This document shows, piece after piece, positions 388 through 13,020 of a stretch of DNA of 13,360 nucleotides. The translations under genes and the position numbers were made by a program. Each line of letters opens with the position of its first letter. Position 1 is the stretch's first letter. This stretch comes from Candidatus Nanohaloarchaea archaeon (lineage in GTDB: Archaea; Nanohalarchaeota; Nanosalinia; Nanosalinales; Nanosalinaceae). The DNA lies in assembly GCA_046497485.1 (NCBI GenBank), contig JAWOFP010000044.1:1-13360 (forward strand). The letters are read 5' to 3'. The notes beneath the pieces were generated by a model, which was not told where the DNA came from, made no database searches, and was given only the letters and a program-made list of their open reading frames with translations.

Positions 388-1034
388 TTCAAGATTCTCT
401 ACTCAAGGCCTCAGCATTCACATTTATACTCGTGGTTTTAGGTATTCTGGTAGGCCTTCAGATGGATGATATGAGGCAGGACCGCCTCACAGAGGAGCTG
501 GATCGTTCAAATCTTGAGACTGAAACATTCTCAGTGCTAGATGCATATATTTCGGGTTCAGACGGTGACCACTGCCAGTTAATGGATGTTCAAATTCCAA
601 AGATAGGCGAAAGAAATGCTCAGCTCGGTTCAGAACTGCAGAGGTTTGAAGCTCAGAATCTTGGCAGCGATGAAGAGTATAGGTTTATCAGAGATAGATA
701 TTACAACAACCAGCTGAGGCTTTACATGGCTATGAGTAATTATAGAGATAGGTGTGGAGATACAAATCAGACTACTGTGCTTTACTTTTTCGATGATTCA
801 GCTGAAAGCAGCAGAATGGGATCTGTCCTGAATGAAATAGTATTACAGACAGAAACACAGGTATTCAGTTTTAATACAGAAGTTGATTCTCCAATTGTAG
901 ATATCTTGGAAAGAGACCATAATGTAACTCAGTCCCCAACAATAGTAGTGAATGATGAAAAGAAAATTGAAGGATTTATCTCAGTCGGAGAACTTAGATA
1001 CGATGTAATTGAGGGTAACTCGACTGAACAGTAA
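378..1034 (+). CDS. Membrane-anchored protein with a helical region and a C-terminal thioredoxin-like fold (no CxxC)
   Basis: N-terminal TM helix (AFTFILVVLGILVGL), followed by Trx-like elements VLYFF, QVFSFN, HNVTQSPTIVVN (cis-Pro loop) and KIEGFIS. Overlaps the upstream gene by 10 nt. Confidence 0.65.
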   Translation: MDVVQDSLLKASAFTFILVVLGILVGLQMDDMRQDRLTEELDRSNLETETFSVLDAYISGSDGDHCQLMDVQIPKIGERNAQLGSELQRFEAQNLGSDEEYRFIRDRYYNNQLRLYMAMSNYRDRCGDTNQTTVLYFFDDSAESSRMGSVLNEIVLQTETQVFSFNTEVDSPIVDILERDHNVTQSPTIVVNDEKKIEGFISVGELRYDVIEGNSTEQ

Positions 1035-1048
1035 TTTTTCTAATTAAC

Positions 1049-1912
1049 TTATTCTAGTGTAACTCTATTGCTTCTTCCTTCTTTCTCTTTGCTTAAAATC
1101 TCTAATTCTTCAAGTTCTGATACAAGGCCTGAAATCTTTGCTTTGGAATACTCCGACTCTTCCACTATATCTTTTTGAAGCATGCTTTCCTCTTCTTCCA
1201 GCATCTCAACCACAAGTCTTTGATCTTCCGTGAGTTTATCCTTTACTTTTTCCTCGTCGGAATCTGATTTTCTTTTCAAGTATGCTCTAGCGAATCCGGC
1301 AAGTAGTATAAGCGCGGCCAGTCCGATCACAGCGTTCCTGAAACTATTCCCAAGTTCCTCATAAGCTACCTCGAAAGCGATTGTCTCACCAAGTTCAGGG
1401 TCTTGAGTCCATTCGACGTGAATTCTTCTACCTTCACTTCCTACTTCGCCAAACTCCGGATCAATTACAGGAGTAGTATCGTTTTCCTGGTTAACTACCC
1501 CTGTACCTTCTGGTAATACAGCTCGGAAAGTATACTGGTCTGTAGGCCTGTAAACATTCTGACTATATCTGAAGATGTTTGCGTTGTTCCTGTTAGTTGT
1601 AAGGCCTGAAGTAGTGTAATGGATATCTGCTGTGAAGTTAGTATACACATCTGTCTCACAGCTTATTTCTCCGCCTAAACTTAGCTCTTCAAAGAAGCAG
1701 TCAGCTTCCTCACCGTCGATTTCTACTCTCAGATTATCCACGGGGTGATTTGTAATATAGGTCATTCTGGAAGAAGTTAGTTCGCCGAACTCTACCTCTT
1801 TCTCAACTGAGTTATCCTGTAGATCGAACTCTACATATTCGCTTTCTATATTTGTGGCTGAAGCTAGAGAAATCAATGCTAATAGGCCTATTAGTAGCGT
1901 TAGTTTTCTCAT
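1049..1912 (-). CDS. Transmembrane winged helix-turn-helix protein (COG2512-like): signal peptide, extracellular beta domain, one TM helix, cytoplasmic MarR-like wHTH
   Basis: Signal peptide MRKLTLLIGLLALISLASA; TM AVIGLAALILLAGFA followed by basic residues; C-terminal LTEDQRLVVEML...MLQKDIVEESEYSKAKISGLVSELEELEILSKEKEGRSNRVTL. Confidence 0.8.
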   Translation of the reverse strand: MRKLTLLIGLLALISLASATNIESEYVEFDLQDNSVEKEVEFGELTSSRMTYITNHPVDNLRVEIDGEEADCFFEELSLGGEISCETDVYTNFTADIHYTTSGLTTNRNNANIFRYSQNVYRPTDQYTFRAVLPEGTGVVNQENDTTPVIDPEFGEVGSEGRRIHVEWTQDPELGETIAFEVAYEELGNSFRNAVIGLAALILLAGFARAYLKRKSDSDEEKVKDKLTEDQRLVVEMLEEEESMLQKDIVEESEYSKAKISGLVSELEELEILSKEKEGRSNRVTLE

Positions 1913-1930
1913 TTCAGGTTCTTGGTTAAT

Positions 1931-2335
1931 TTATCCTCGGTTTTCGGTTTTGGATACAAGCATGCCTCCGACACCCATTTCTGCATAGCGCCTCATAATA
2001 TCTGCGACATCTTGAAGAGTCTCCTGACCTTCCTTCAATGAAAGTTCATAGTTATCAGGAGATTCTAGCTGGATATATGTCGGGCCATAATTAATTACGA
2101 GCGCGATTGCTTCTTCAAAGCTTGAGGCCTTAACTACTACTTCAGCTACTTGAGAGTATCCTTCCTCGAGATCTGGGTGAGGGTTTTCCACTTGCTCAAC
2201 TTCTTCTAAGGTTGTCTCAATTATCTCTGCGTCGGGTTCATTTCCTAGTTTTTCCAGGTGTTCATCAAGTGAGCCTTCAACTGCCTCTTCTGTAGCGGCT
2301 ACTGCCTCAAATATCATCCAAAGTTTAAGTTCCAT
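1931..2335 (-). CDS. Acidic cytoplasmic hypothetical protein, resembling a conserved archaeal family of unknown function
   Basis: 134-aa ORF with an alternating alpha/beta pattern (WMIFEAVA, YSQVAEVVV, INYGPTYIQLESP) and a TATA-like TTTAA 26-30 nt upstream. It lies 18 nt from the wHTH gene on the same strand. Confidence 0.7.
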   Translation of the reverse strand: MELKLWMIFEAVAATEEAVEGSLDEHLEKLGNEPDAEIIETTLEEVEQVENPHPDLEEGYSQVAEVVVKASSFEEAIALVINYGPTYIQLESPDNYELSLKEGQETLQDVADIMRRYAEMGVGGMLVSKTENRG

Positions 2336-2356
2336 AATAAATTTTTAGTTTTCCTC

Positions 2357-2369
2357 AAGCTTAAAGCTT
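2357..2369 (-). promoter_or_regulatory. TATA-like box (TTTAA on the - strand, 2361-2365) embedded in the dyad AAGCTT-A-AAGCTT
   Basis: Perfect 6-1-6 inverted repeat; the TATA-like core lies 26-30 nt upstream of the ATG at 2335. Confidence 0.5.
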
Positions 2370-2450
2370 TGAAGGTCAGGCCTTATGTAAATAGGGCGTT
2401 TTCGTGGTAAATTTTCTGAAAGGTAGCTGGATTTTAGTTGAAGGGAAGGA

Positions 2451-2464
2451 TTAAAACCAGGCAT
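2451..2464 (+). promoter_or_regulatory. TATA-like box TTAAAA followed by AGGCAT, upstream of the ATG at 2480
   Basis: TTAAAA at 2451-2456 is 24-29 nt upstream of ATG 2480 and has a purine-rich BRE-like segment (GAAGGGAAGGA) before it. Confidence 0.5.
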
Positions 2465-2479
2465 ATACAAGTAAAATTC

Positions 2480-2899
2480 ATGGACTTGAAGCAGAAAATT
2501 CAGGAAATCGAATATGAGTACTGGCTTGACAAGAGAGAGTTCGGGAAAGTAATGATAATAGCTAGTCTATCAATTCTGGTGGTATCCATTCACGCAATAT
2601 ATACAGTGAATGATGCGGTAGATCAGGCCTCAAACTCCAGTGAGAGAATGGAGACTACAGCTGTTCTGGTAAATTCCGATTCTTTCCAAAATAGTATGGA
2701 GAACTTTGCTGACACTGGAGCAACGATAGGCGGAGAGCCGGTTTCAGAAGTAGTGTCGGATCTTCAGTATGCATCAGAATCAGTGGAGGAAATGAATCAG
2801 ATGTCGGAGGAATTGGAAAATGCTAGAACTACTTACCAGTGGACGGTACTTCTTGGAATTCTGGGGCTGGTTGCAGGGATAACAGCCATATATATCTAA
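2480..2899 (+). CDS. Hypothetical membrane protein with two TM helices flanking a helical acidic loop
   Basis: TM segments VMIIASLSILVVSIHAIY and WTVLLGILGLVAGITAIYI. I moved the start from TTG 2438 to ATG 2480 because the TATA-like box lies between them. Confidence 0.7.
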   Translation: MDLKQKIQEIEYEYWLDKREFGKVMIIASLSILVVSIHAIYTVNDAVDQASNSSERMETTAVLVNSDSFQNSMENFADTGATIGGEPVSEVVSDLQYASESVEEMNQMSEELENARTTYQWTVLLGILGLVAGITAIYI

Positions 2900-2926
2900 A
2901 AGTCTTCAGAAATAATTGTTTTCTAA

Positions 2927-4693
2927 ATGAAAAGACTAGTTTTAATAACTGCGCTAGTATTTATGACTGGCCTGGCTTCGGCAGCTAATCTCACAGTTGA
3001 GGTATGGGACGAAGATGAGAATGTCCAAGATGCCAATCTTTTGTTGGAACAGGATGGCGCTACTATTGATGACGGTACGGTAATAGATACAGAAGTGAAT
3101 GATGGAGAAGATTATAATTTTACTCAAGAAGTAAATGGTCTTGAAATCACGATATATAATTTTTCTATATCTCAAGACATGGATTTCAGGCCTAGAATAC
3201 TTGATCTGGATGTTCCTCAAGGCTCTGATTACTTGACGGAATTGGATCCTTTCTACTTTGTAAATCAAAGCTTTGATTTCTCTCATGCTGAGATTAATTC
3301 AGGTAAGACTGAAACTCCGGACAGAATAGCCAAATGCACAGAATTTTCAGATTTAAGATGTGAGAGTTGGGAGGTGAACAGTACTTCAGACTACGAAGAT
3401 AATTCTCCTTTGGATTCAGAAACTTACAGCTATGAAGTAAATAATTTTTCTGCTTATTCAACAGGGAATAACGCTTCTCTACCAGTAATTAATAACCTGG
3501 AGATCTTTAATGTTACAGATTTAGCTGATCAAAGAACTTCAGGTGAGAAAATCAGTGAAGGCCTTAATAAGACGTTTTTAATTGATCATAAAAGATGGAA
3601 TCAGTATAGATTTGAGTTCAATTTATCAAATAACGGCTCAGAAGACTGGGATTTAAGTTCAGGCGACTTACTTGAACATAGAGGGCTTAACAGCTCTTGG
3701 AGTGTAAATAATAGCGATATCTATTATACTATAGACCAGACTTTTGATGGAGGTAGTTTCGACTCAGGAGTTGTTGAATGGAACACGGGTAATGGAGGTA
3801 CACTTGGAACCAATGAAGGTATGTCGGCAGAATATATTGTGAATGTATCTCAGAACTCGACTTCAACCTATGATCAGGAGTTTGAAGCTAATAGTAGTGA
3901 AGGCGGGTCTGAAATCGACTTTCATGAACTGGAAATTCTGATTTATGGTTTCCTCGATCCAGTGATTGAGAGGCCTGAAGATGGTTCAATTGTTCAAAAT
4001 AACAGAAATTTCAAATTGAACGGTACAGTAAAGTGTCGGGATGGAGACTGTGGCGAAATTGACTTAACACCAAGGAGGAACAGCTCAAATGGACAAATAG
4101 CGATTGATGGATCGGTATTTGATATCCAGGACTCAAGTAGGAGTAACTGCCAGAGTTTACTAGAAGATGAGGTATGTGAAGTTGAATGGTCTGTGAATGC
4201 AACAGGAGATCCTGATATAAGTCATAAAATAGACTTCTTGGCTGATTCTAATTATCAAGAAGTGGGTTCTGATTCAACAGAGTTATCAGAGGTCACAATT
4301 AGAGATATTCTTTTAGTTGATCTCGACTGGAATACTGTAGATTTTGGGATTCTTGATCCGGGAGAACGTGAAAAACCTGCTAGGAATAACTCTGGGGGAT
4401 ATAATTTGACTGTAGAGGAGGAAAGCAATAAAATTGATAACCTTTGGTTAAAAGGCTCAGAACTTGTAAATGAGGAAAACAGCAATTATACCATTGGAAT
4501 TGGTAACATGAGTTATGCTCAAAAAAATGAGGTAGATCAGTCCTCGAACATTACATCTAATTACTCTTTGATAAATACTGATCTTTCGCCAGGTCTAACC
4601 AAAACCTTCTATTACTGGATAGATGTTCCTCTAGGGATTTTAAGAGGAGCATACTCTGGTTCAATAACATTTAAGGCAAATCAGACGGAATGA
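2927..4693 (+). CDS. Secreted multi-domain beta-sandwich surface glycoprotein with a C-terminal pilin/fibre-subunit-like domain and no membrane anchor
   Basis: Signal peptide MKRLVLITALVFMTGLASA, about 26 N-x-S/T sequons and three local Cys pairs. The last domain runs from VDFGILDPG to IDVPLGILRGAYSGSITFKA. Confidence 0.7.
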   Translation: MKRLVLITALVFMTGLASAANLTVEVWDEDENVQDANLLLEQDGATIDDGTVIDTEVNDGEDYNFTQEVNGLEITIYNFSISQDMDFRPRILDLDVPQGSDYLTELDPFYFVNQSFDFSHAEINSGKTETPDRIAKCTEFSDLRCESWEVNSTSDYEDNSPLDSETYSYEVNNFSAYSTGNNASLPVINNLEIFNVTDLADQRTSGEKISEGLNKTFLIDHKRWNQYRFEFNLSNNGSEDWDLSSGDLLEHRGLNSSWSVNNSDIYYTIDQTFDGGSFDSGVVEWNTGNGGTLGTNEGMSAEYIVNVSQNSTSTYDQEFEANSSEGGSEIDFHELEILIYGFLDPVIERPEDGSIVQNNRNFKLNGTVKCRDGDCGEIDLTPRRNSSNGQIAIDGSVFDIQDSSRSNCQSLLEDEVCEVEWSVNATGDPDISHKIDFLADSNYQEVGSDSTELSEVTIRDILLVDLDWNTVDFGILDPGEREKPARNNSGGYNLTVEEESNKIDNLWLKGSELVNEENSNYTIGIGNMSYAQKNEVDQSSNITSNYSLINTDLSPGLTKTFYYWIDVPLGILRGAYSGSITFKANQTE

Positions 4694-5358
4694 AAGGAAT
4701 AACTCTGATATTGGCTTTAACTGTATTTATTTCAATGGTTTCGGCGTCTATAGGAACTTTTACGGGAGATCTGAAACAGGAAGGTCCTGAGGCCGAATTT
4801 ATTGTAGGGATTGCTTCCGATAAACCTTTAAAAGTAGAAATTGACGTGCCTGAGAGAGAAGGCCTCAATATTACTTATAATCAAAGCTTTAGATTTGATC
4901 CAAATAATGAAGATAGGGTTTATCAAAGAGGCTCAACTTCTTTACCTGTAAGAGAATACCAAATCTCTGTCGAGTCAGTAGATGTAACTCAAGAAACTTA
5001 TAGTATCCCAGTAAATTTTAAGGCCTATCCTGAGAGTAAAAATGCTGGTACAAGCCCTAGAGTTATTCAAGAGAGGGTTTATATGTTCAACTACGTTACT
5101 GATCTTTCACCTAATCATGGATGGGATGGTAGTTTGATAGATAACGGTGATAACTCGGTTAGTAATAACGAAGATCAAAATAAATCCTCGGGTGCTGATG
5201 AAACTCTTGATTTGGGCAATAATTCGGAAAACTCTTTAACAGAGGGTAACCAAACAGATGATGTTAGAGTGGAGAACTCTACTGACAGGACGACACAAAT
5301 TTTACTAGGCTTGATCCTGTTACTGTCGATTTATATACTGAAAGAGGGCTTAAAATGA
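4690..5358 (+). CDS. Secreted single Ig-like domain protein with an Asn/Asp/Ser-rich stalk and C-terminal TM anchor
   Basis: Signal peptide, beta-rich domain (YSIPVNFKAY), sequon-rich linker and TM ILLGLILLLSIYIL. ATGA overlaps with both neighbouring genes. Confidence 0.7.
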   Translation: MKGITLILALTVFISMVSASIGTFTGDLKQEGPEAEFIVGIASDKPLKVEIDVPEREGLNITYNQSFRFDPNNEDRVYQRGSTSLPVREYQISVESVDVTQETYSIPVNFKAYPESKNAGTSPRVIQERVYMFNYVTDLSPNHGWDGSLIDNGDNSVSNNEDQNKSSGADETLDLGNNSENSLTEGNQTDDVRVENSTDRTTQILLGLILLLSIYILKEGLK

Positions 5359-7376
5359 ACAAAATGGTTTCACTGGCGATGGTAATGTTCATAGTAATGG
5401 GGGCATTTACACCTCAAGTATTTTCCCAGAGCTCTGATGATACATCTGTTTCAGTCTCCATAGATCGTACCTGCTCTGTAAATTCAAGGGATTTTCGATT
5501 TAATGGCGCTTACTTCTCAAATGATCTACAGTCTGAGATTGTAGGCCTAAATACTACAGGTAATTTTGAATACTTGCCTAATAGTCGGGGGGAGATGAGC
5601 TTCTCGGAGTTTAATATTTCAGCCTATAGAACAGAGGAGATAGAAACAGCAGGTATCGGTAATGAAACAGATAACAACACAACTGATGAAAACACAACTG
5701 ATGACGAAATCAATAGTTCTAGTTTAAATATTGAAACAACTGAACTGGATGAAGAGAATAAAACATATATCAATCTTTCAAAACAACCGAATAATTATAC
5801 TCAATATTATTTACTGAACTCAAGTAATGCGAACACTGACCCAAGCCTGTCTAGGCTTTTCCCTGAGGCGGACAACGCTAAGCATTATGTCAGGTCGTTT
5901 AGACACAATACAACTGAAGAAATAACAGAAAAACATCAGAACTCATCATTAATCGGTTATAACTCGACCTGGGAGCCTCTAATTAGTGTGCCTAGATTAT
6001 TAACTTTTGATGCTCTTTATGAACCTGGTAAGTATACTGCTGAGCTATCTATGAAATATAGATGTGAGTTTAGTCCTGGAGTAGATTCAGATTTTTACGT
6101 TGAAAGTGAAGATCGAGTTTTCACCATGTCCGAGTACGAGACTTACATCGAAAACAATAGTGTAAATGAAGCTCAGGACCTCAGCATCGATGGATTAAAC
6201 GTTTCAGAATATGACGGAGAGGCCTCAGAACCTTATGCTGTTACTAATGAAGAGGAAAATATTGTGACGGATGAATTCGCGATACTTGATCTTGAGGGAG
6301 AAGGGGTAATACCTGATGATGTAGGTGAAGATAATGAAGTGAACCAAGAGGTTGAAACCGATGCCGAGATACCGGATAACGCCACTACAGAGTTTGAGAC
6401 AGATGCAGACGAGACATTAGATGAAGCAGATCCTAGGCAAGGTGCTGATTCTAACTTCCCGGGAGAAACTGAAGTGCCAGAGCCAGAACCTGAACCTGAG
6501 CCCGATCCAGTACCGTTACTGAGCCTAAGTATTAGGCCTTTAAACTCCACATATGAAGCGCCCAGAAGCAGGTTTACAGAAGTAGGCCTTGAAATCGAGA
6601 ATATAGGTGAAGAATCTGTCAACAATGTGGAACTAGAGCCTAGGTATTCTGAAGGTATGAATTGGGAGTCTCAGATAGGGAATATAGATTCTCTTGAGGT
6701 CGGAGATTCTGTGAATAGATCAGTATATGTGAATCCGGGTGAAGATGTAAGTCCTGGAACTTATCAGATACCTGTCTATGCATCGAATGCTGAGTCGGAT
6801 ATAGATATGCAGTATGTGAACGTAGAAGTACTACAGCAGGTTTTTCAGGGTACTTTGAATATTCAGGAGGCGCCTAGAGATGTCCGGTTTGAGAGAAACA
6901 GCAATAATACAATACCGATCTTAGTAGAGAACCAAGGAGAAGACTCAATTCAGAATGTTCAGGTGGAAGTTGAGAACTCTGAGGCTTGTGGAGAGTATAC
7001 TGTTGATTCAGTTGATAGTATTTCTCCTGGAGAGTCTGCTTCAATCTCTGTCCAATTTACGACAGGAGCCGATATTACGGAGTGTTCAGGGACAATTGTT
7101 GCTTCATCTGAAAACGGAGACTTAGCGTTCTCAGAATTTAATATGGATGTAAAGGAAGAAGTCGGACCTATCCCTGAAGAGTTCAGAGTGCCGATAGTTG
7201 CTTCCCTCTGGACAGTTATGCTGCTAGCTTACGCAGTACTCACAAAGAAATACGGTGTCCACAACATGACTGTTAAGGTTCCACTAGTCTTACTTGTGGT
7301 GGGAGAGGCCTTTATTGTAATATATCTATCCTCAGTATACTACAATGTGATGCCTCCAGGGCTCTTACCATTCTAG
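5355..7376 (+). CDS. Large acidic surface protein with a Pro-Glu linker, two CARDB/NEW3-like (COG1361/COG1470-like) Ig domains and two C-terminal TM helices
   Basis: Signal peptide; LEIENIGEESVNNVEL...VSPGTYQIPVYA and ILVENQGEDSIQNVQV...SISPGESASISVQF; two hydrophobic helices at the C-terminus. Confidence 0.75.
   Translation: MNKMVSLAMVMFIVMGAFTPQVFSQSSDDTSVSVSIDRTCSVNSRDFRFNGAYFSNDLQSEIVGLNTTGNFEYLPNSRGEMSFSEFNISAYRTEEIETAGIGNETDNNTTDENTTDDEINSSSLNIETTELDEENKTYINLSKQPNNYTQYYLLNSSNANTDPSLSRLFPEADNAKHYVRSFRHNTTEEITEKHQNSSLIGYNSTWEPLISVPRLLTFDALYEPGKYTAELSMKYRCEFSPGVDSDFYVESEDRVFTMSEYETYIENNSVNEAQDLSIDGLNVSEYDGEASEPYAVTNEEENIVTDEFAILDLEGEGVIPDDVGEDNEVNQEVETDAEIPDNATTEFETDADETLDEADPRQGADSNFPGETEVPEPEPEPEPDPVPLLSLSIRPLNSTYEAPRSRFTEVGLEIENIGEESVNNVELEPRYSEGMNWESQIGNIDSLEVGDSVNRSVYVNPGEDVSPGTYQIPVYASNAESDIDMQYVNVEVLQQVFQGTLNIQEAPRDVRFERNSNNTIPILVENQGEDSIQNVQVEVENSEACGEYTVDSVDSISPGESASISVQFTTGADITECSGTIVASSENGDLAFSEFNMDVKEEVGPIPEEFRVPIVASLWTVMLLAYAVLTKKYGVHNMTVKVPLVLLVVGEAFIVIYLSSVYYNVMPPGLLPF
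5676..5705 (+). repeat. Two tandem 15-bp units AACACAACTGATGA(A/C) encoding NTTDE/NTTDD
   Basis: Directly visible; each unit encodes an N-glycosylation sequon. Confidence 0.8.
6474..6515 (+). repeat. Degenerate 6-bp repeats encoding the VPEPEPEPEPDPVP linker
   Basis: CCA GAG CCA GAA CCT GAA CCT GAG CCC GAT CCA; synonymous positions vary, so the repeat is maintained at protein level. Confidence 0.8.
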
Positions 7377-7391
7377 AAAGAAAAAGAGTGT
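7377..7391 (-). terminator. Probable oligo-T archaeal terminator between convergent genes
   Basis: The - strand reads ACACTCTTTTTCTTT immediately after the stop of the 521-aa gene. Confidence 0.4.
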
Positions 7392-8957
7392 TTAACTCAT
7401 TTTCTGAATTACTTCTTCACATATATCTATAATCTCATTAGGATCGTCCACATCAAACTTTCCAGTATACTGTTCTCTATGCAGTTTTAGGAAAAATTCT
7501 GCCAAAGACTCCATTGATTCCTCTTCGGTAGGCATCGTCTCAGCCAGTTCTTTGTATGTCATCTCTCTTTCAAGTTCCAGTGTTCTCTCTAGGAATCCTT
7601 TCATGATATGAGCAGTCTTGATTGAGGCCTCTTCATCGTCCAGTTCTCTGTACTGATCAAGTATTTCACTGACTCTGTCAGCGTTAATTCCGGAGTTTTT
7701 ATCTTCGCTTTTTCCATTATCTCTGCTTAACTTGTTTCTAATGTTAGACTTGAGGTCTTCAATTTTTTCCTTAGTGGATTTTCCTTGATCTTCTTCGCTG
7801 CCCTCATCGTCCCACCTGACCGCACCCATAAGCATCTCGAGATCTTCTTCTGCCTCCTCTCGCATCTCCTCATGCTCTTCCTTGGACTCCTCCTTTTCAT
7901 CAATACTTTCGGCTATCTTCTCCAAGTCCTCAGTGCTGGAACTCCTTAATTCTTCCTCTTCCATTCCCTGATCTGAAAGCTTTTCGATCAAATGCTCTCT
8001 ATGCTCCTTCTCAGACCTGATTTTTTCCAGATCTTTAACAGAAAAGTTTTCAAGCTCCTCATCGCTCATATCCAGGTCAAGATCACCCGCTAACTCTTTC
8101 TTTTTTTCCTTTGAACTTTCATTTTCAGACTTTGGATCCTCACTATCTTCATTTTCTTCCTCTGATTGATCTACTTCATCATCCTCTTTTTCTTTTTCGG
8201 AGGCCTCATCAGATTCATCTTCATCATTTTCTTCATCCGACTCGTTATCATCGTCCTCGGAATCCTCCTCGTCATTATCAGAGTCTTCTTCATTTTCTTC
8301 CTCGCTTTCAGATTCCTCTGATTCACTATCCTCTTCTGAATCTTTCTCCTCTGATTCTTCCTCTTTATCATCATTTTCTACTTCTTTACCTAGGCCTTCA
8401 TCTTCTCTAACTTCATCGAGATCTTCCTTTAATTTTTCCAGATCTTCATGAGCCTTCTCCATGTCCTGACCCACTTGTCTCTTCTTAATCTTTTTCTCAA
8501 GAAAGCTCTTAGCAGTCTTACGGTTCTTTACACGCTCTTCCGCGTTCAACACGTTTTCAAGCTGCTCAGCAGTCAAAGGATTTTCATTAACAAACTCCTT
8601 CAACTCATTGACTGTTCCACCGACTAAATCAATCAGCTTATCCTGGTCGATATCAATATTCTCTTCATCGAAATGCTCGATGTCCTCAACTCTCTCAATT
8701 TCATTAATTAAATCGGATAATTCGCCTACATCGTTATCTGCTAGGCCTAGATAAGCTGAGACATTCTCCTCTGTTATTTGTCTATCGATAAACTCTATTA
8801 TTTCGTCCCTGTTTTTACCTGAAGATTCGGCTTCTTTCAACGCTCTCAGATCATTCAAAGTTAACTCCATCTCTGAGACTTTTTCCTTGAAATCTCCGCT
8901 ACTTCCGGTTGTTAGTTCGGAAATATTTCCTATACTCAGCTTTCTATCATCCGACAT
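7392..8957 (-). CDS. Very acidic soluble protein with two 50-aa AE-x3-KNR repeats, a D/E low-complexity tract and a C-terminal helical domain resembling Bat-locus accessory domains (DUF4129/DUF4381-like)
   Basis: Internal repeats at residues 12-61 and 108-157; C-terminal IMKGFLERTLELEREMTYKELA...LAEFFLKLHREQY; lies directly downstream of the VWA gene; no TM helix or signal peptide. Confidence 0.65.
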   Translation of the reverse strand: MSDDRKLSIGNISELTTGSSGDFKEKVSEMELTLNDLRALKEAESSGKNRDEIIEFIDRQITEENVSAYLGLADNDVGELSDLINEIERVEDIEHFDEENIDIDQDKLIDLVGGTVNELKEFVNENPLTAEQLENVLNAEERVKNRKTAKSFLEKKIKKRQVGQDMEKAHEDLEKLKEDLDEVREDEGLGKEVENDDKEEESEEKDSEEDSESEESESEEENEEDSDNDEEDSEDDDNESDEENDEDESDEASEKEKEDDEVDQSEEENEDSEDPKSENESSKEKKKELAGDLDLDMSDEELENFSVKDLEKIRSEKEHREHLIEKLSDQGMEEEELRSSSTEDLEKIAESIDEKEESKEEHEEMREEAEEDLEMLMGAVRWDDEGSEEDQGKSTKEKIEDLKSNIRNKLSRDNGKSEDKNSGINADRVSEILDQYRELDDEEASIKTAHIMKGFLERTLELEREMTYKELAETMPTEEESMESLAEFFLKLHREQYTGKFDVDDPNEIIDICEEVIQKMS

Positions 8958-8986
8958 AACAAGAATTTAGTAGGCCTTAAATAATA
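8958..8986 (-). promoter_or_regulatory. Putative leaderless promoter: TATTATTTA-AGGCCT-N14-ATG
   Basis: AT-rich box 21-29 nt upstream of ATG 8957, with AGGCCT at 8972-8977. Confidence 0.5.
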
Positions 8987-8988
8987 CT

Positions 8989-9942
8989 TTAGGGTATGAC
9001 TTCGAAATCGGTAGTCCTGTAAACTGCATCTAGTACAAGTAGAATTCCAGCGAGCATAATCAGGTAGCGGGAAACATCAGTCTCGACCTCTTGCTCCTCT
9101 AACTCAACTATAGAGTCTTCCAGGCCTTCACGGCTTGTAGCGAATCTTGCCTCGCCGCCAGTCTCATTCGCTAGACCTATCAATTTAGTCTGATTTAGGT
9201 TAGGGAACTGAGCCCGAGTAGCTTCTTCACCTCTTATCGTATCGTCAGTCTCTTCCTCTTCTGTTTCTGCCTCTCCGATACCAATCGGGTTCACTGTAAC
9301 ATTTTGTCTAGCTGCAAACTCTGCAGCCTCCTCAATTGACTGCCCAACGTTGTTTGTTCCGTCTGTAATCAGTATAACCGTTTTAGTCTGATTAGAAGAC
9401 ATAAGCATTGACGAGCTTGTAGCAACTGCATCACCTGTGGCTGTACCTGCTGACTCGCCCATCTCAACGTTGTTGATTGCGGCCCGAACCTGGCTCATAT
9501 CCGAGTTCAATTCTAATTCTTCATTCACATCTCCAGCGTAGGATACGACTCCTACATTACTAGAGTTGCCGAGTCTGCCTACAAACTGGTTACTGGTCTC
9601 TTTTGAGGCCTCGAACCGGTTAGGCTCGACATCCCCTGTAAACATTGAGGAAGAAACATCCATTGTGATAACAAAGTCGTTGTCTGCGCCTTGGACAGTC
9701 TGAACTATCGCTGGACTGGAAAGGCCTATCAATAAGCAGGTAATTGCTAAAATCCGGGTTATCATAATTAATGTATCTGACCGGATTAAATCGCCTCCAG
9801 CGACCTTCTTCAAGGTCTTGTAGTTTCCGAACTTCATGGTCCTTTCTTTCTTTTTAGTTCTTCCATACATGAAAATCAGAATAACTAATCCGTTCAATAG
9901 TAGTAGCATATTTGCGTACTGATCCGTGAATATAAGTTTCAC
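8989..9942 (-). CDS. BatA-like von Willebrand factor A domain membrane protein
   Basis: BatA-type N-terminal TM pair (...RILAITCLLIGLSSP), MIDAS motif DVSSS, PNRFEASK, GTATGDA, ILITDG and a C-terminal TM helix. The GTG start overlaps the upstream TGA (GTGA at 9942-9939). Confidence 0.9.
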   Translation of the reverse strand: MKLIFTDQYANMLLLLNGLVILIFMYGRTKKKERTMKFGNYKTLKKVAGGDLIRSDTLIMITRILAITCLLIGLSSPAIVQTVQGADNDFVITMDVSSSMFTGDVEPNRFEASKETSNQFVGRLGNSSNVGVVSYAGDVNEELELNSDMSQVRAAINNVEMGESAGTATGDAVATSSSMLMSSNQTKTVILITDGTNNVGQSIEEAAEFAARQNVTVNPIGIGEAETEEEETDDTIRGEEATRAQFPNLNQTKLIGLANETGGEARFATSREGLEDSIVELEEQEVETDVSRYLIMLAGILLVLDAVYRTTDFEVIP

Positions 9943-10835
9943 CAGTCACCACCTTCCTCATCTAAGTATTTAGCAAATTTAGCGGAAAAGTTATCCCGTG
10001 AATCCACCTTAATTATCGATGCTCCTGCCGATTCGACTTTGTTGATTACTCTCTGCTCCTCTTTTTCAGCTTCTTCCTCATATTCATCCTTAACTTTGGA
10101 AGTATTGACAACTAGCTGATCATTTCCTGAGGCCTTCTCAAACCTCATGTTCCCGTTTTCCGGGAGCTTGTAGTCTCTGAGATCTTTCACCATTATGTTC
10201 ATGACATGCCGGAACTTTTTCGATGCGACAAGCATCTTAGCTTTCCAGTCTCCTTGAATATCTATAAAATCCGATACAATGAACAATGAAGTATTTTCCT
10301 TAATCTGTCCTACAACACTGTCGAGAGCGTCTTCAAGATCAAACTGGCCTCCGTAATTATCAAATCTAGTGACTTCAGTCAAGATCTTTTGGTACTGAAC
10401 CTGGCCTCCTGAAGGAAGCATAACAAGTTCATCGTCTCCATAAATCCCGAACCCAACATTAGATCCCATATCAATTGAAGCATAAGCTAAAGCGGCGCAT
10501 ATGATGGCGGAGTACTCTGATTTCAACTTGTCTGCGGTCCCAAACATCATGGAGTCGGAGGCATCTAAGACAATGAAAATATCCATGTCCTTCTCCTCCT
10601 CATACTCCTTCACATAAAGATCGTCACCGGTCGCGGAGTTCTTCCAGTCAATCCTTGAGGCATCATCGCTTGTCTGATACTGCCGGAGATCCGAGAACTC
10701 GATTCCCGAGGCCTGGAACTGCTCTTTGTACTTCAAGGCAAACATGAATGCGTCCGCCACCTTCTTCACCTCGGTATCCACTTTCTGGGTCAGGTCATCT
10801 TTCCCGAAAAAGTCTTCAGCTCTGATATCCGACAT
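9939..10835 (-). CDS. DUF58 (COG1721) protein with a VWA-like domain
   Basis: GIEFSDLRQYQTSDDASRIDWKNSA, LYVKEYEEE, IVLDASDSMMFG, FIVSDF; located immediately downstream of MoxR. Confidence 0.92.
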   Translation of the reverse strand: MSDIRAEDFFGKDDLTQKVDTEVKKVADAFMFALKYKEQFQASGIEFSDLRQYQTSDDASRIDWKNSATGDDLYVKEYEEEKDMDIFIVLDASDSMMFGTADKLKSEYSAIICAALAYASIDMGSNVGFGIYGDDELVMLPSGGQVQYQKILTEVTRFDNYGGQFDLEDALDSVVGQIKENTSLFIVSDFIDIQGDWKAKMLVASKKFRHVMNIMVKDLRDYKLPENGNMRFEKASGNDQLVVNTSKVKDEYEEEAEKEEQRVINKVESAGASIIKVDSRDNFSAKFAKYLDEEGGDW

Positions 10836-10867
10836 AAGAAATTAGTAGGTAGGCCTCGAATAAAAAA
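10836..10867 (-). promoter_or_regulatory. Putative leaderless promoter: TTTTTTATTCG-AGGCCT-N15-ATG
   Basis: T-rich TATA-like box 24-32 nt upstream of ATG 10835, with AGGCCT at 10851-10856. The T-run could also terminate the moxR transcript. Confidence 0.5.
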
Positions 10868-10873
10868 TAAGGC

Positions 10874-11884
10874 TTACCTTACTGGCACTCGGTTCACAAT
10901 GTTTTCAATAATATCTTCAACTTCGATTCCTTCTGCTTCTCCCTCATAGTTAAGCATTATTCTGTGGATGAAAACCTCTTCTATAACTGCCCTGATATCT
11001 TCAGGAGTTACATAATGCCGCTCATTGTACAATGCGTGGGCTCTTCCTGCTAAAGCCAGGTTAATAGAAGCTCTCGGTGTACATCCCCACTCAATATATT
11101 CCTCATATTCCAAATCATAGTCGGCAGGGTTTCTTGATGCGTCCACTAGGTCTACAATATACTCTTTAATTTCCTGTCTAACTGTTACCTGCTTCGCAAA
11201 TTCTTGAAGATCTGTAACATCTTGAGCAGTTACAACCTCATTAACATTGAAATCCTCATCATCCATAATGTTCGCGTTCATATCGATAATCTTTTGCTCA
11301 TTCTTCTTCTTAGGATAATCCAGGTAAATCTTGAACAAAAAACGATCAATCTGAGCCTCAGGGAGCGGATAGGTTCCACCTTGTTCTACAGGATTCTGTG
11401 TAGCCATTGTAAAGAAAGGCTCAGGTAAATGGAAGGTCTCATCGCCGATAGAAACCTTATGCTCCTGCATTGCCTCAAGCATCGCAGACTGAACTTTTGG
11501 AGGAGCACGGTTAATCTCATCCGCCAAAATGAAGTTAGCGAAGATAGGACCCTTCTCGACATAGAAACCTTTATCCTCGTTGTAGGCCTCAACGCCGACA
11601 ATATCTGAAGGAAGCTTGTCAGGTGTGAACTGGATTCGTGCGAACTCAGTATCTTCGACAACTCTACCCAGTTGCTCAACTAAAAGGCTTTTACCTAGGC
11701 CTGGTACTCCTTCAAGCAGAATGTTTCCTCCGGCACAGACTGTCAGTATGATCTTGTTAATAACATTTTCTTGGCCGATATATCCTTTCTGGATCTCTTC
11801 TTCCATTCGATGCATGATCTCGCTGAAATGCTCAGCCTTCTCTTGCATCTCATCATCACTCAAATCTGCATACTTACTAGCCAT
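10874..11884 (-). CDS. moxR: MoxR family AAA+ ATPase (MoxR-proper type)
   Basis: Walker A GVPGLGKS, RIQFTPD, Walker B ILADEINRAPPKVQSAMLEAM, ATQNPVEQGGTYPLPEAQIDRF and lid motif GCTPRA. Confidence 0.97.
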   Translation of the reverse strand: MASKYADLSDDEMQEKAEHFSEIMHRMEEEIQKGYIGQENVINKIILTVCAGGNILLEGVPGLGKSLLVEQLGRVVEDTEFARIQFTPDKLPSDIVGVEAYNEDKGFYVEKGPIFANFILADEINRAPPKVQSAMLEAMQEHKVSIGDETFHLPEPFFTMATQNPVEQGGTYPLPEAQIDRFLFKIYLDYPKKKNEQKIIDMNANIMDDEDFNVNEVVTAQDVTDLQEFAKQVTVRQEIKEYIVDLVDASRNPADYDLEYEEYIEWGCTPRASINLALAGRAHALYNERHYVTPEDIRAVIEEVFIHRIMLNYEGEAEGIEVEDIIENIVNRVPVR

Positions 11885-11914
11885 ACAAAGTAATCGGTAG
11901 GCCTTGAATAAAAA
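11885..11914 (-). promoter_or_regulatory. Putative leaderless promoter: TTTTTATTCA-AGGCCT-N14-ATG
   Basis: TATA-like box 23-30 nt upstream of ATG 11884, with AGGCCT at 11899-11904. Confidence 0.55.
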
Positions 11915-11937
11915 TGATGCGAAAAAAGTTCTGTAGA

Positions 11938-12345
11938 TTAATTTTCCAGAAAGCTTTCAATACCCTCGATTATAATTCCTTCAAGCTCTGCAGCGATTGA
12001 GTCAGCTATCTTACCTTCATAGACGGGCCTGTAGAAACCAGTGTTGTAACTTAATCCATCTTCAGAATATTCTAACTGAAGCTCGGGATGAAAGTTTTTA
12101 GGATTCAGATCGACTTCCTGTGGATACTCATCCGGAGTTAACTGCGGGACCAGTGTCAGGCGATCTTCTGTTTCGAAGGCAAAGATATTACTGACTGTCA
12201 AACTCCTGTCCTCGAGATAATCAGAGAAACTTTCTAATCCTTCAAAATCCACTTCATAATCCGGGTCAAGCTCTGCTCTTAATTCACTAACAGTTCCAGA
12301 TTTAACAATTTTCAGGCCTTTATCACTGTACTGAACCTCTGCCAT
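11938..12345 (-). CDS. Acidic hypothetical protein, paralogue of 12384-12890
   Basis: 135-aa ORF sharing four collinear motifs with the adjacent ORF. Confidence 0.7.
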   Translation of the reverse strand: MAEVQYSDKGLKIVKSGTVSELRAELDPDYEVDFEGLESFSDYLEDRSLTVSNIFAFETEDRLTLVPQLTPDEYPQEVDLNPKNFHPELQLEYSEDGLSYNTGFYRPVYEGKIADSIAAELEGIIIEGIESFLEN

Positions 12346-12383
12346 AACATTAATCTGTTAGTAAACTGTTAACTCTCTTCCGC

Positions 12384-12890
12384 TCAGTAAACTTCTCTTT
12401 CAAGGCCTTCAACAATTAACTCATCAGAATAATCAGCTAACCTTCCCAGCAGCTTCCTGAAAACAGGATTAGGAAAACCAGGGTTATCTGCCTCCATAGA
12501 GAATACTCTATCATAAGTCACACCTTCTGCTCCATAAACCTCATCCACATGAACATCTAATTCAGGCCTAAAAAGTCTGGAAACCACATTGTCACTGCTA
12601 TAATCAATTTCTGGAGAAACCACTAAGTTATACAGCGAATCCTCCGTGGAGAACGAAAACTCCCAGTCACGCACATCAAAACCATTCGACTCCAGATAAT
12701 TCTCAAAACTTTTCCAATCATCTTCACAGTGAACATTTTCAAACCAGTCATCCAAGCCACGATCCATACCACGAGTAAAATCATTAAACCTAGAACCCTC
12801 CAAAACACTCACAGGCAAATCAGGCCTATCAACAACAACTGTTAACTCCGAAGGACTATCTTCTTCAACATAACCAGTAAAACCACTCAC
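12384..12890 (-). CDS. Acidic hypothetical protein, paralogue of 11938-12345
   Basis: 168-aa ORF with a GTG start and a TATA-like TTTTATC 23-29 nt upstream; shares motifs with the neighbouring ORF. Confidence 0.7.
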   Translation of the reverse strand: MSGFTGYVEEDSPSELTVVVDRPDLPVSVLEGSRFNDFTRGMDRGLDDWFENVHCEDDWKSFENYLESNGFDVRDWEFSFSTEDSLYNLVVSPEIDYSSDNVVSRLFRPELDVHVDEVYGAEGVTYDRVFSMEADNPGFPNPVFRKLLGRLADYSDELIVEGLEREVY

Positions 12891-12956
12891 AGAATATAGT
12901 TAGGCCTCAAAAGATAAAATAATACAGTTCAGATAAGTTGCTTAAAAATGCTGTTC

Positions 12957-13020
12957 AAAAAAAATTAACACTCAACAGGCCTACTATCTGAGTCAATTAG
13001 AAAGAAGAAAAAGAAAAGAA
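12957..13020 (-). terminator. Pyrimidine tract, imperfect hairpin and T8 run downstream of the 13034-13360 gene
   Basis: The - strand reads TTCTTTTCTTTTTCTTCTTTCT, then AATTGACTCA...TGAGTGTTAA, then TTTTTTTT. Confidence 0.55.

Follow-up and report, generated by a model that had tools for sequence, protein, structure and literature searches.

The hexamer AGGCCT is a real, genome-wide and lineage-switchable highly iterated palindrome (HIP) in archaea. The stretch considered here, a contig of 13,360 nucleotides from Candidatus Nanohaloarchaea archaeon (JAWOFP010000044.1 of assembly GCA_046497485.1; its whole length is hereafter the window), holds 39 exact copies, the first at 406 and the last at 12977-12982, against a mean of 2.56 and a maximum of 8 in 200 dinucleotide shuffles of the same sequence. 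This corresponds to an enrichment of 15-fold by shuffle and ~20-fold by base composition. As a preliminary description of the window had stated, ~80% of GGCC lies inside A-GGCC-T (39 of 49 occurrences) and the flanking bases are variable; its assignment of the DNA to a halophilic archaeon is borne out by the closest relatives of the encoded MoxR protein, which are Nanohaloarchaea at 73-85% identity. The HIP1-like enrichment that it reported is not restricted to the window, which is one contig of a 968-kb assembly (G000; 967,558 bases, 66 contigs). All 66 contigs carry the word, at 1.8-5.8 per kb, for a total of 3,249 sites or ~1 per 300 bases. The genome-wide enrichment is 14.8-fold over an order-1 model which, with 38-fold in spacers, places AGGCCT among HIPs as delimited by an enrichment of at least 15-fold. 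A literature search, mostly without subscription journals, gave no description of AGGCCT enrichment in archaea among the matches listed.

The excess is not a by-product of codon usage. Each of the 13 complete called genes of the window has at least one site, all three reading frames are used (K-A(-S) at 406, V-G-L at 452, R-P at 1544 on a minus-strand gene) and 6 of the 39 sites are intergenic, so that the preliminary claim of sites in every complete gene and every frame is upheld; the two genes at the window ends have no AGGCCT. In the genes of G000, 2,935 sites are seen against 312 after a synonymous shuffle and 900 when codon junctions are kept, and 65-78% of the places that could silently encode the word are filled. 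AGGCCT also changes the use of amino-acid pairs and not only silent positions: in G000 compared with the AGGCCT-poor G024, the frequency is 1.59 vs 0.79 for R-P, 1.44 vs 1.02 for G-L and 1.77 vs 0.93 for [KEQ]-A-[SFYCW]. Dicodon-preserving shuffling, named in the preliminary description as a critical check on the enrichment, gave a divided answer. The model accounts for about half to two thirds of the in-gene counts, because AGGCCT itself dominates those dicodons, yet a 1.6- to 1.9-fold excess is left (1,006 observed vs 534 expected, and 1,413 vs 905) and spacers contain 251 sites vs 6.6 expected (intergenic observed-to-expected ratios of 38 and 36). In four genomes, no other word rose above ~2-fold under the codon-and-junction null, and the enrichment is common to closed genomes and metagenome contigs. 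The probability that codon-pair bias, composition or an assembly artefact explains AGGCCT is therefore negligible.

The distribution of the word among relatives is discontinuous. Of 70 genomes of the phylum, with densities computed from rounded genome sizes, 12 are rich (2.0-4.8 sites per kb), G004 stands at 0.95 and 57 lie below 0.7. The rich G005 and G060 belong to the same genus as four poor species, and a quick RpoA' tree forces at least three changes of state and rejects a single rich clade (one such tree took 28 rows; that for state changes left out G026, G027 and G028). Metagenome loci are bimodal, 12 of 38 having observed-to-expected ratios of 10-30 and the rest at most 3.5. Conservation in orthologues, for which the preliminary description suggested a test, was found, and it goes beyond what neutral evolution would give: in 9 of 10 comparisons between rich relatives, whose fourfold divergence is 47-57%, ~70-80% of sites are shared. 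Between genera, only 679 of 1,851 aligned sites are in common. Most rich relatives keep between 9/12 and 27/33 sites at a synonymous divergence similar to that of G004, the decayed member of the matched pair G003/G004, which retains 1 of 14, with losses mostly by single changes. The decay of G004 indicates that the force maintaining AGGCCT can be switched off. No substitute word was found in G024 or in 19 poor loci. Integrated elements are largely without AGGCCT, as exemplified by an element of ~27 kb in G022 (L162-L163; coordinates outside the window are those of our own gene caller), which carries an integrase-like gene and apparent heavy-metal genes and is almost free of the word. The CRISPR spacers of the closed, rich genome G010 contain one site in 20 spacers, an uninformative count, and no convincing nanohaloarchaeal virus was found among at least 121 stretches, ranked by density, in a search for viral contigs with triple sites. 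Contigs from one study show 40 of 1,103 differences, by which no site is gained or lost, a sample too small to read. Within G000, contigs C12 and C31 hold a stretch with an MFS gene, an EndoQ-like gene and their neighbours in two copies at ~81% nucleotide identity, which suggests a second strain or species in the assembly.

What is read appears to be the whole palindrome. Each of the six positions is favoured against transitions and transversions, with odds ratios of 5-56 in G000 and 6-97 in G010, and soft preferences extend ~3 bases beyond the hexamer. The full site has a log odds ratio (ln) of 3.0-3.7 and half-sites of 0.0-1.2 in G000 and G010, so that the palindrome is super-additive; G022, also rich, has a graded form in which GGCC itself is enriched. 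Such a pattern would be expected of a two-fold symmetric protein on double-stranded DNA, in keeping with the idea of a protein-read site put forward in the preliminary description. The odds in favour of a site that stands alone are raised 20- to 40-fold, alike in genes, spacers and promoter spacers. Sites also repel one another: pairs less than 30 bp apart occur at 0.28 of expectation, which reaches 1.0 near 120 bp, unlike well-sampled control words, which cluster slightly. With the amino-acid context fixed, the penalty in G000 is -1.6 in log-odds below 30 bp, -0.7 at 30-60, -0.4 at 60-90 and -0.1 at 90-120 bp; it is similar in G010 and confined to distances below 30 bp in G022. At distances over 120 bp, the filled fraction no longer depends on the gap, which argues for a local force rather than one that minimises gaps. 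Site spacing also had a 10-bp period, which disappeared when encodable positions were taken into account. At a larger scale, between 10 and 90 kb, where HIPs are periodic, the sites of G010 show one peak near 76 kb with islands uncontrolled, so that a HIP-like periodicity is at most tentative.

Placement is equally indifferent to function. The realised fraction is 0.67-0.78 across conservation classes, and promoters are not depleted: from the TATA-like box to the start codon, the density of sites is even about doubled. Within the window, 4 of the 6 intergenic sites lie 12-21 bases before a start codon. The sites of the window are arranged as follows.

406..457: two sites (406, 452) in the plus-strand gene 378-1034, read as K-A-S and V-G-L.
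1125..1889: four sites (1125, 1544, 1602, 1884) in the minus-strand DUF7343 gene 1049-1912, that at 1544 read as R-P.
2125..2130: one site in the minus-strand gene 1931-2335.
2378..2383: an intergenic site between divergent genes.
2625..2630: one site in the plus-strand gene 2438/2480-2899.
3188..3976: three sites (3188, 3559, 3971) in the plus-strand gene 2927-4693.
4860..5026: two sites (4860, 5021) in the plus-strand gene 4690-5358.
5543..7311: five sites (5543, 6220, 6534, 6584, 7306) in the plus-strand gene 5355-7376 for a CARDB/NEW3 surface protein.
7625..8748: four sites (7625, 8201, 8392, 8743) in the minus-strand gene 7392-8957.
8972..8977: an intergenic site 15-20 bases upstream of the minus-strand start at 8957.
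9122..9727: three sites (9122, 9606, 9722) in the minus-strand vWA gene 8989-9942.
10130..10714: two sites (10130, 10709) in the minus-strand DUF58 gene 9939-10835.
10851..10856: an intergenic site 16-21 bases upstream of the DUF58 start.
11584..11702: two sites (11584, 11697) in the minus-strand MoxR AAA gene 10874-11884.
11899..11904: an intergenic site, 15-20 bases upstream of the MoxR start, with almost the same surroundings as the site at 10851.
12314..12319: one site in the minus-strand gene 11938-12345.
12403..12827: three sites (12403, 12564, 12822) in the minus-strand gene 12384-12890.
12902..12982: two intergenic sites (12902, 12977), the former 12-17 bases upstream of the start at 12890.

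The MoxR AAA, DUF58 and vWA/BatA genes stand in a row at 8989-11884, adjoining large acidic surface proteins. The near-identical 15-base contexts around the sites before DUF58 and MoxR (10848-10862 and 11896-11910) may represent a shared promoter element of a MoxR-DUF58-vWA operon.

The preliminary description had linked the motif, as one possibility and by analogy with HIP1, to a resident methyltransferase marking GGCC or AGGCCT and to a repair step that fixes new sites. Such a model predicts local saturation, AGGCCT is methylated in another organism (PMC12128166) and G000 does encode one C5 methylase, on contig C53. However, this enzyme matches M.HaeIII only in the catalytic half (residues 4-168), adjoins a McrB-like ATPase and was not found in the other rich genomes searched. 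Profile searches of rich genomes retrieved PF00145 in 1 of 7, PF02086 in 0 of 7, PF01555 in 1 of 12 and Vsr in 0 of 5, and bias at all six positions rules out a single-base conversion of the Vsr type. In the closed G010, none of PF00145, PF02086 and PF01555 is matched, and the type IIG gene ends ahead of its catalytic motif; the same gene is a 215-aa piece in G000 and whole in the poor G024. Neither a Dnd nor an Ssp cluster was detected by PADLOC in 255 of the 1,202 G010 proteins (106 were scanned by Pfam), the only match being a cysteine desulfurase; outside this part of the proteome, an unusual modifier is conceivable. Full-length HaeIII-like methylases occur instead in two genomes that avoid AGGCCT, G024 and G020, which is the reverse of the HIP1 pattern. 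The main text of two nanohaloarchaeal methylome papers reports GDGCHC and has no GGCC string (PMC11001535, PMC10266531). Since no tested methyltransferase family or Vsr tracks AGGCCT and two poor relatives carry a GGCC methylase, methylation-directed repair is very improbable, and this branch of the preliminary description is without support. The two HaeIII-like GGCC methylases lie at L089:488-2386 (G024) and L003 (G020), that of G024 with an NgoPII-family nuclease; an NgoPII/HaeIII-like system would be expected to cut the DNA of AGGCCT-rich relatives about every 200-300 bases.

Several other candidate drivers were set aside. The presence of C5, D12 and N6/N4 methylases, of the type IIG remnant and of Vsr did not track AGGCCT; HhH-GPD glycosylases and NucS are each present in 5 of 5 genomes; and EndoQ, an alkyltransferase-like protein, a 70-aa winged helix, DUF2582, DnaG, an unknown two-domain protein, a small SAM methylase and a PHP protein did not track it either. 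The DUF2582 winged-helix domain lies in a reading frame of 840-920 aa (C62:50084 in G000 and orthologues) in most genomes of the family, and DnaG was not found in the four genomes of genus g21 or the two of genus g15, closed ones included.

We propose, with rather less than even confidence, that AGGCCT is recognised by a protein, without methylation, and promotes itself by tilting recombinational repair. A two-fold symmetric protein would read the word on double-stranded DNA and, where a locus is present with and without the site, the site-bearing copy would prevail in repair or gene conversion; the 40-120 bp interference range may then equal the repair or conversion patch. We infer both the reader and the biased repair step. 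A comparable expectation is found in the biased-repair model of Elhai, in which saturation is reached near one site per repair tract (PMC4390886, section 3.4). One candidate reader is an AddAB-like helicase-nuclease, which would stop at the site as at Chi; another is a histone variant that would shield it. Chi sites regulate AddAB-type enzymes and are over-represented (PMC4614115), and in all four genomes examined (G000, G010, G022 and G024) an AddB-like nuclease is encoded beside a UvrD-type helicase. This helicase (AddA) keeps a C-terminal RecB-type nuclease in G000, G010 and G022 and is without one in the poor G024. The nanohaloarchaeal AddA homologues fall into two length classes, ~750-780 and 890-945 aa, and the locus of G024 (L072:8661-14031) has, besides the addA without nuclease domain, two small open reading frames between addB and addA.

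Several observations weigh against this proposal. Drive and selection would look alike in static counts and in site conservation, shared sites are not flanked by reduced synonymous divergence (observed-to-expected 0.95-1.06) and a short rich locus, L396, shares only 3 of 10 sites. No gene's presence tracks AGGCCT among the candidates compared across genomes, a minority of 158 that did not include the AbrB protein, the Cdc6 paralogue or the PolB2 cluster (the screen used G000, G010, G024 and 700 of the 1,047 kb of G022), and DprA was not found in 5 of 5 genomes searched. Most AddA homologues (89 of 124) are full-length, and clusters with full and truncated AddA show no significant difference in motif-encodable peptides (p 0.27); an intact nuclease is thus at most necessary. 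Chi is moreover recognised as a single strand (PMC4614115), and a super-additive palindrome agrees poorly with this: in G000 and G010 the full site has more than double the effect of a half-site, with G022 graded, which does not resemble the behaviour of a word read on one strand. A six-base palindromic Chi is nevertheless possible.

It can alternatively be hypothesised that AGGCCT is selected as a chromatin site, on which an archaeal histone particle or some other nucleoid protein would be centred, each copy being weakly beneficial for packing a very small cell. The interference range fits the footprints of archaeal histones, with 30 bp per dimer, a nucleosome of ~60 bp and GC-rich centres (PMC10899632, PMC3691661). 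The flanks have a small A/T excess, of +6 to +14 per mil at distances of 8-30 bp from the centre, with peaks near 5, 15 and 25 bp and nothing left beyond 31 bp, and the rRNA genes of G010 hold 2 sites in 4.3 kb. Threonine 63 of the histone, equivalent to L62 of HMfB at the tetramer interface (numbering of PMC6136690), is present in 7 of 7 strict-rich genomes with the gene vs 3 of 33 poor genomes; among metagenome loci the counts are 9 of 9 for strict-rich and 1 of 26 for poor ones. Identity of the main histone to its G010 counterpart is 92-95% in G004 and in the six other strict-rich genomes that have the gene, vs 84-89% in the four poor species of the genus of G005 and G060. For pairs with a neighbour identity of 60-63%, the histones are 91-95% identical if both are strict-rich and ~84% if both are poor. 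However, threonine 63 also occurs in the decayed G004 and in the poor G007, G017 and G053, and in none of the three graded rich genomes (g19), so that it neither suffices for enrichment nor accompanies it everywhere; the correlation involves only some three independent lineages. Histone residues that contact DNA are the same in the rich and the poor loci of the family. The A/T phasing exceeds that of control words in G010 and G022 but equals it in G000, third-position phase does not predict realised sites (z 0.2-1.7), and promoter spacers are enriched rather than depleted. The archaeal nucleosome positioning code resembles AGGCCT in its GC-rich centre, length of ~60 bp and low occupancy of ribosomal DNA, and perhaps in its A/T flanks phased at 10 bp, and differs as a loose dinucleotide pattern that is depleted in promoters, where this exact hexamer is not (PMC3691661). 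Selection for chromatin sites is the main rival reading, which we hold to be somewhat less probable than biased repair; the latter is preferred because the force ignores promoters, has been repeatedly lost and saturates locally. As for genome-wide periodicity, AA/TT autocorrelation has a clear period of 10.0 bp in G010, G022 and G024 and a weak one, near 11 bp, in G000.

The preliminary description had also raised a DNA-binding role in uptake, and a tag for DNA uptake or self-recognition during DNA exchange, as with uptake sequences or HIP1-aided transformation, has to be considered. The uptake sequences of competent bacteria are longer, non-palindromic words. Those of Pasteurellaceae and Neisseria are similar to AGGCCT in that they accumulate in coding DNA, raise the frequency of matching peptides, here doubled, and are rare in foreign genes (PMC2817400). 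Against this stand the failure to find DprA, the competence gene that was searched for, in all five genomes examined, including 3 of 3 closed rich genomes, and an interference range near 100 bp, which would be short for taken-up fragments. Classical uptake is thus weakened, and we consider this explanation improbable, whereas the protein-read part of the proposed DNA-binding role stands.

Among known systems, the closest are HIP1 (GCGATCGC) and the alternate cyanobacterial palindromes, which are likewise palindromic, enriched >15-fold both inside and between genes, conserved from genome to genome yet unevenly spread over relatives, and unexplained in function (PMC4390886, PMC5861425). AGGCCT is not HIP1 proper, since the word differs and the host is archaeal; it is a hexamer at ~1 per 300 bp vs ~1 per kb, repels its own copies below 120 bp and has no cognate methylase that was found, a HaeIII-like enzyme accompanying its depletion instead. 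It works like a HIP, but without a methyltransferase for AGGCCT or its core among the families searched. Chi sites of AddAB/RecBCD are similarly short, species-specific, over-represented and methylation-free, and an AddAB-like pair is encoded here; they differ in their single-strand reading (AGCGG in Bacillus), where AGGCCT has weak half-sites and is super-additive (PMC4614115).

The reason for HIP-type words has been open for about three decades, and the present case is a denser one, in archaea of 1 Mb without the methylase of the cyanobacterial models, with on/off states among sister species and a measurable interference range of 40-120 bp. Speculatively, AGGCCT could be the first archaeal self-promoting DNA word, methylation-free, read by an AddAB-type resection enzyme (an archaeal Chi) or by a tetramer-centre histone variant, which would have rewritten the genes and proteins of several nanohaloarchaeal lineages and would decay when its reader changes. 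The word is a ready marker for binning and for recently acquired DNA. The small genomes and the matched pairs (G003 and G004; G005 and G060 vs four congeners) make the reader findable and, if the above is true, sister species with and without AGGCCT would make the cause of highly iterated palindromes directly testable.

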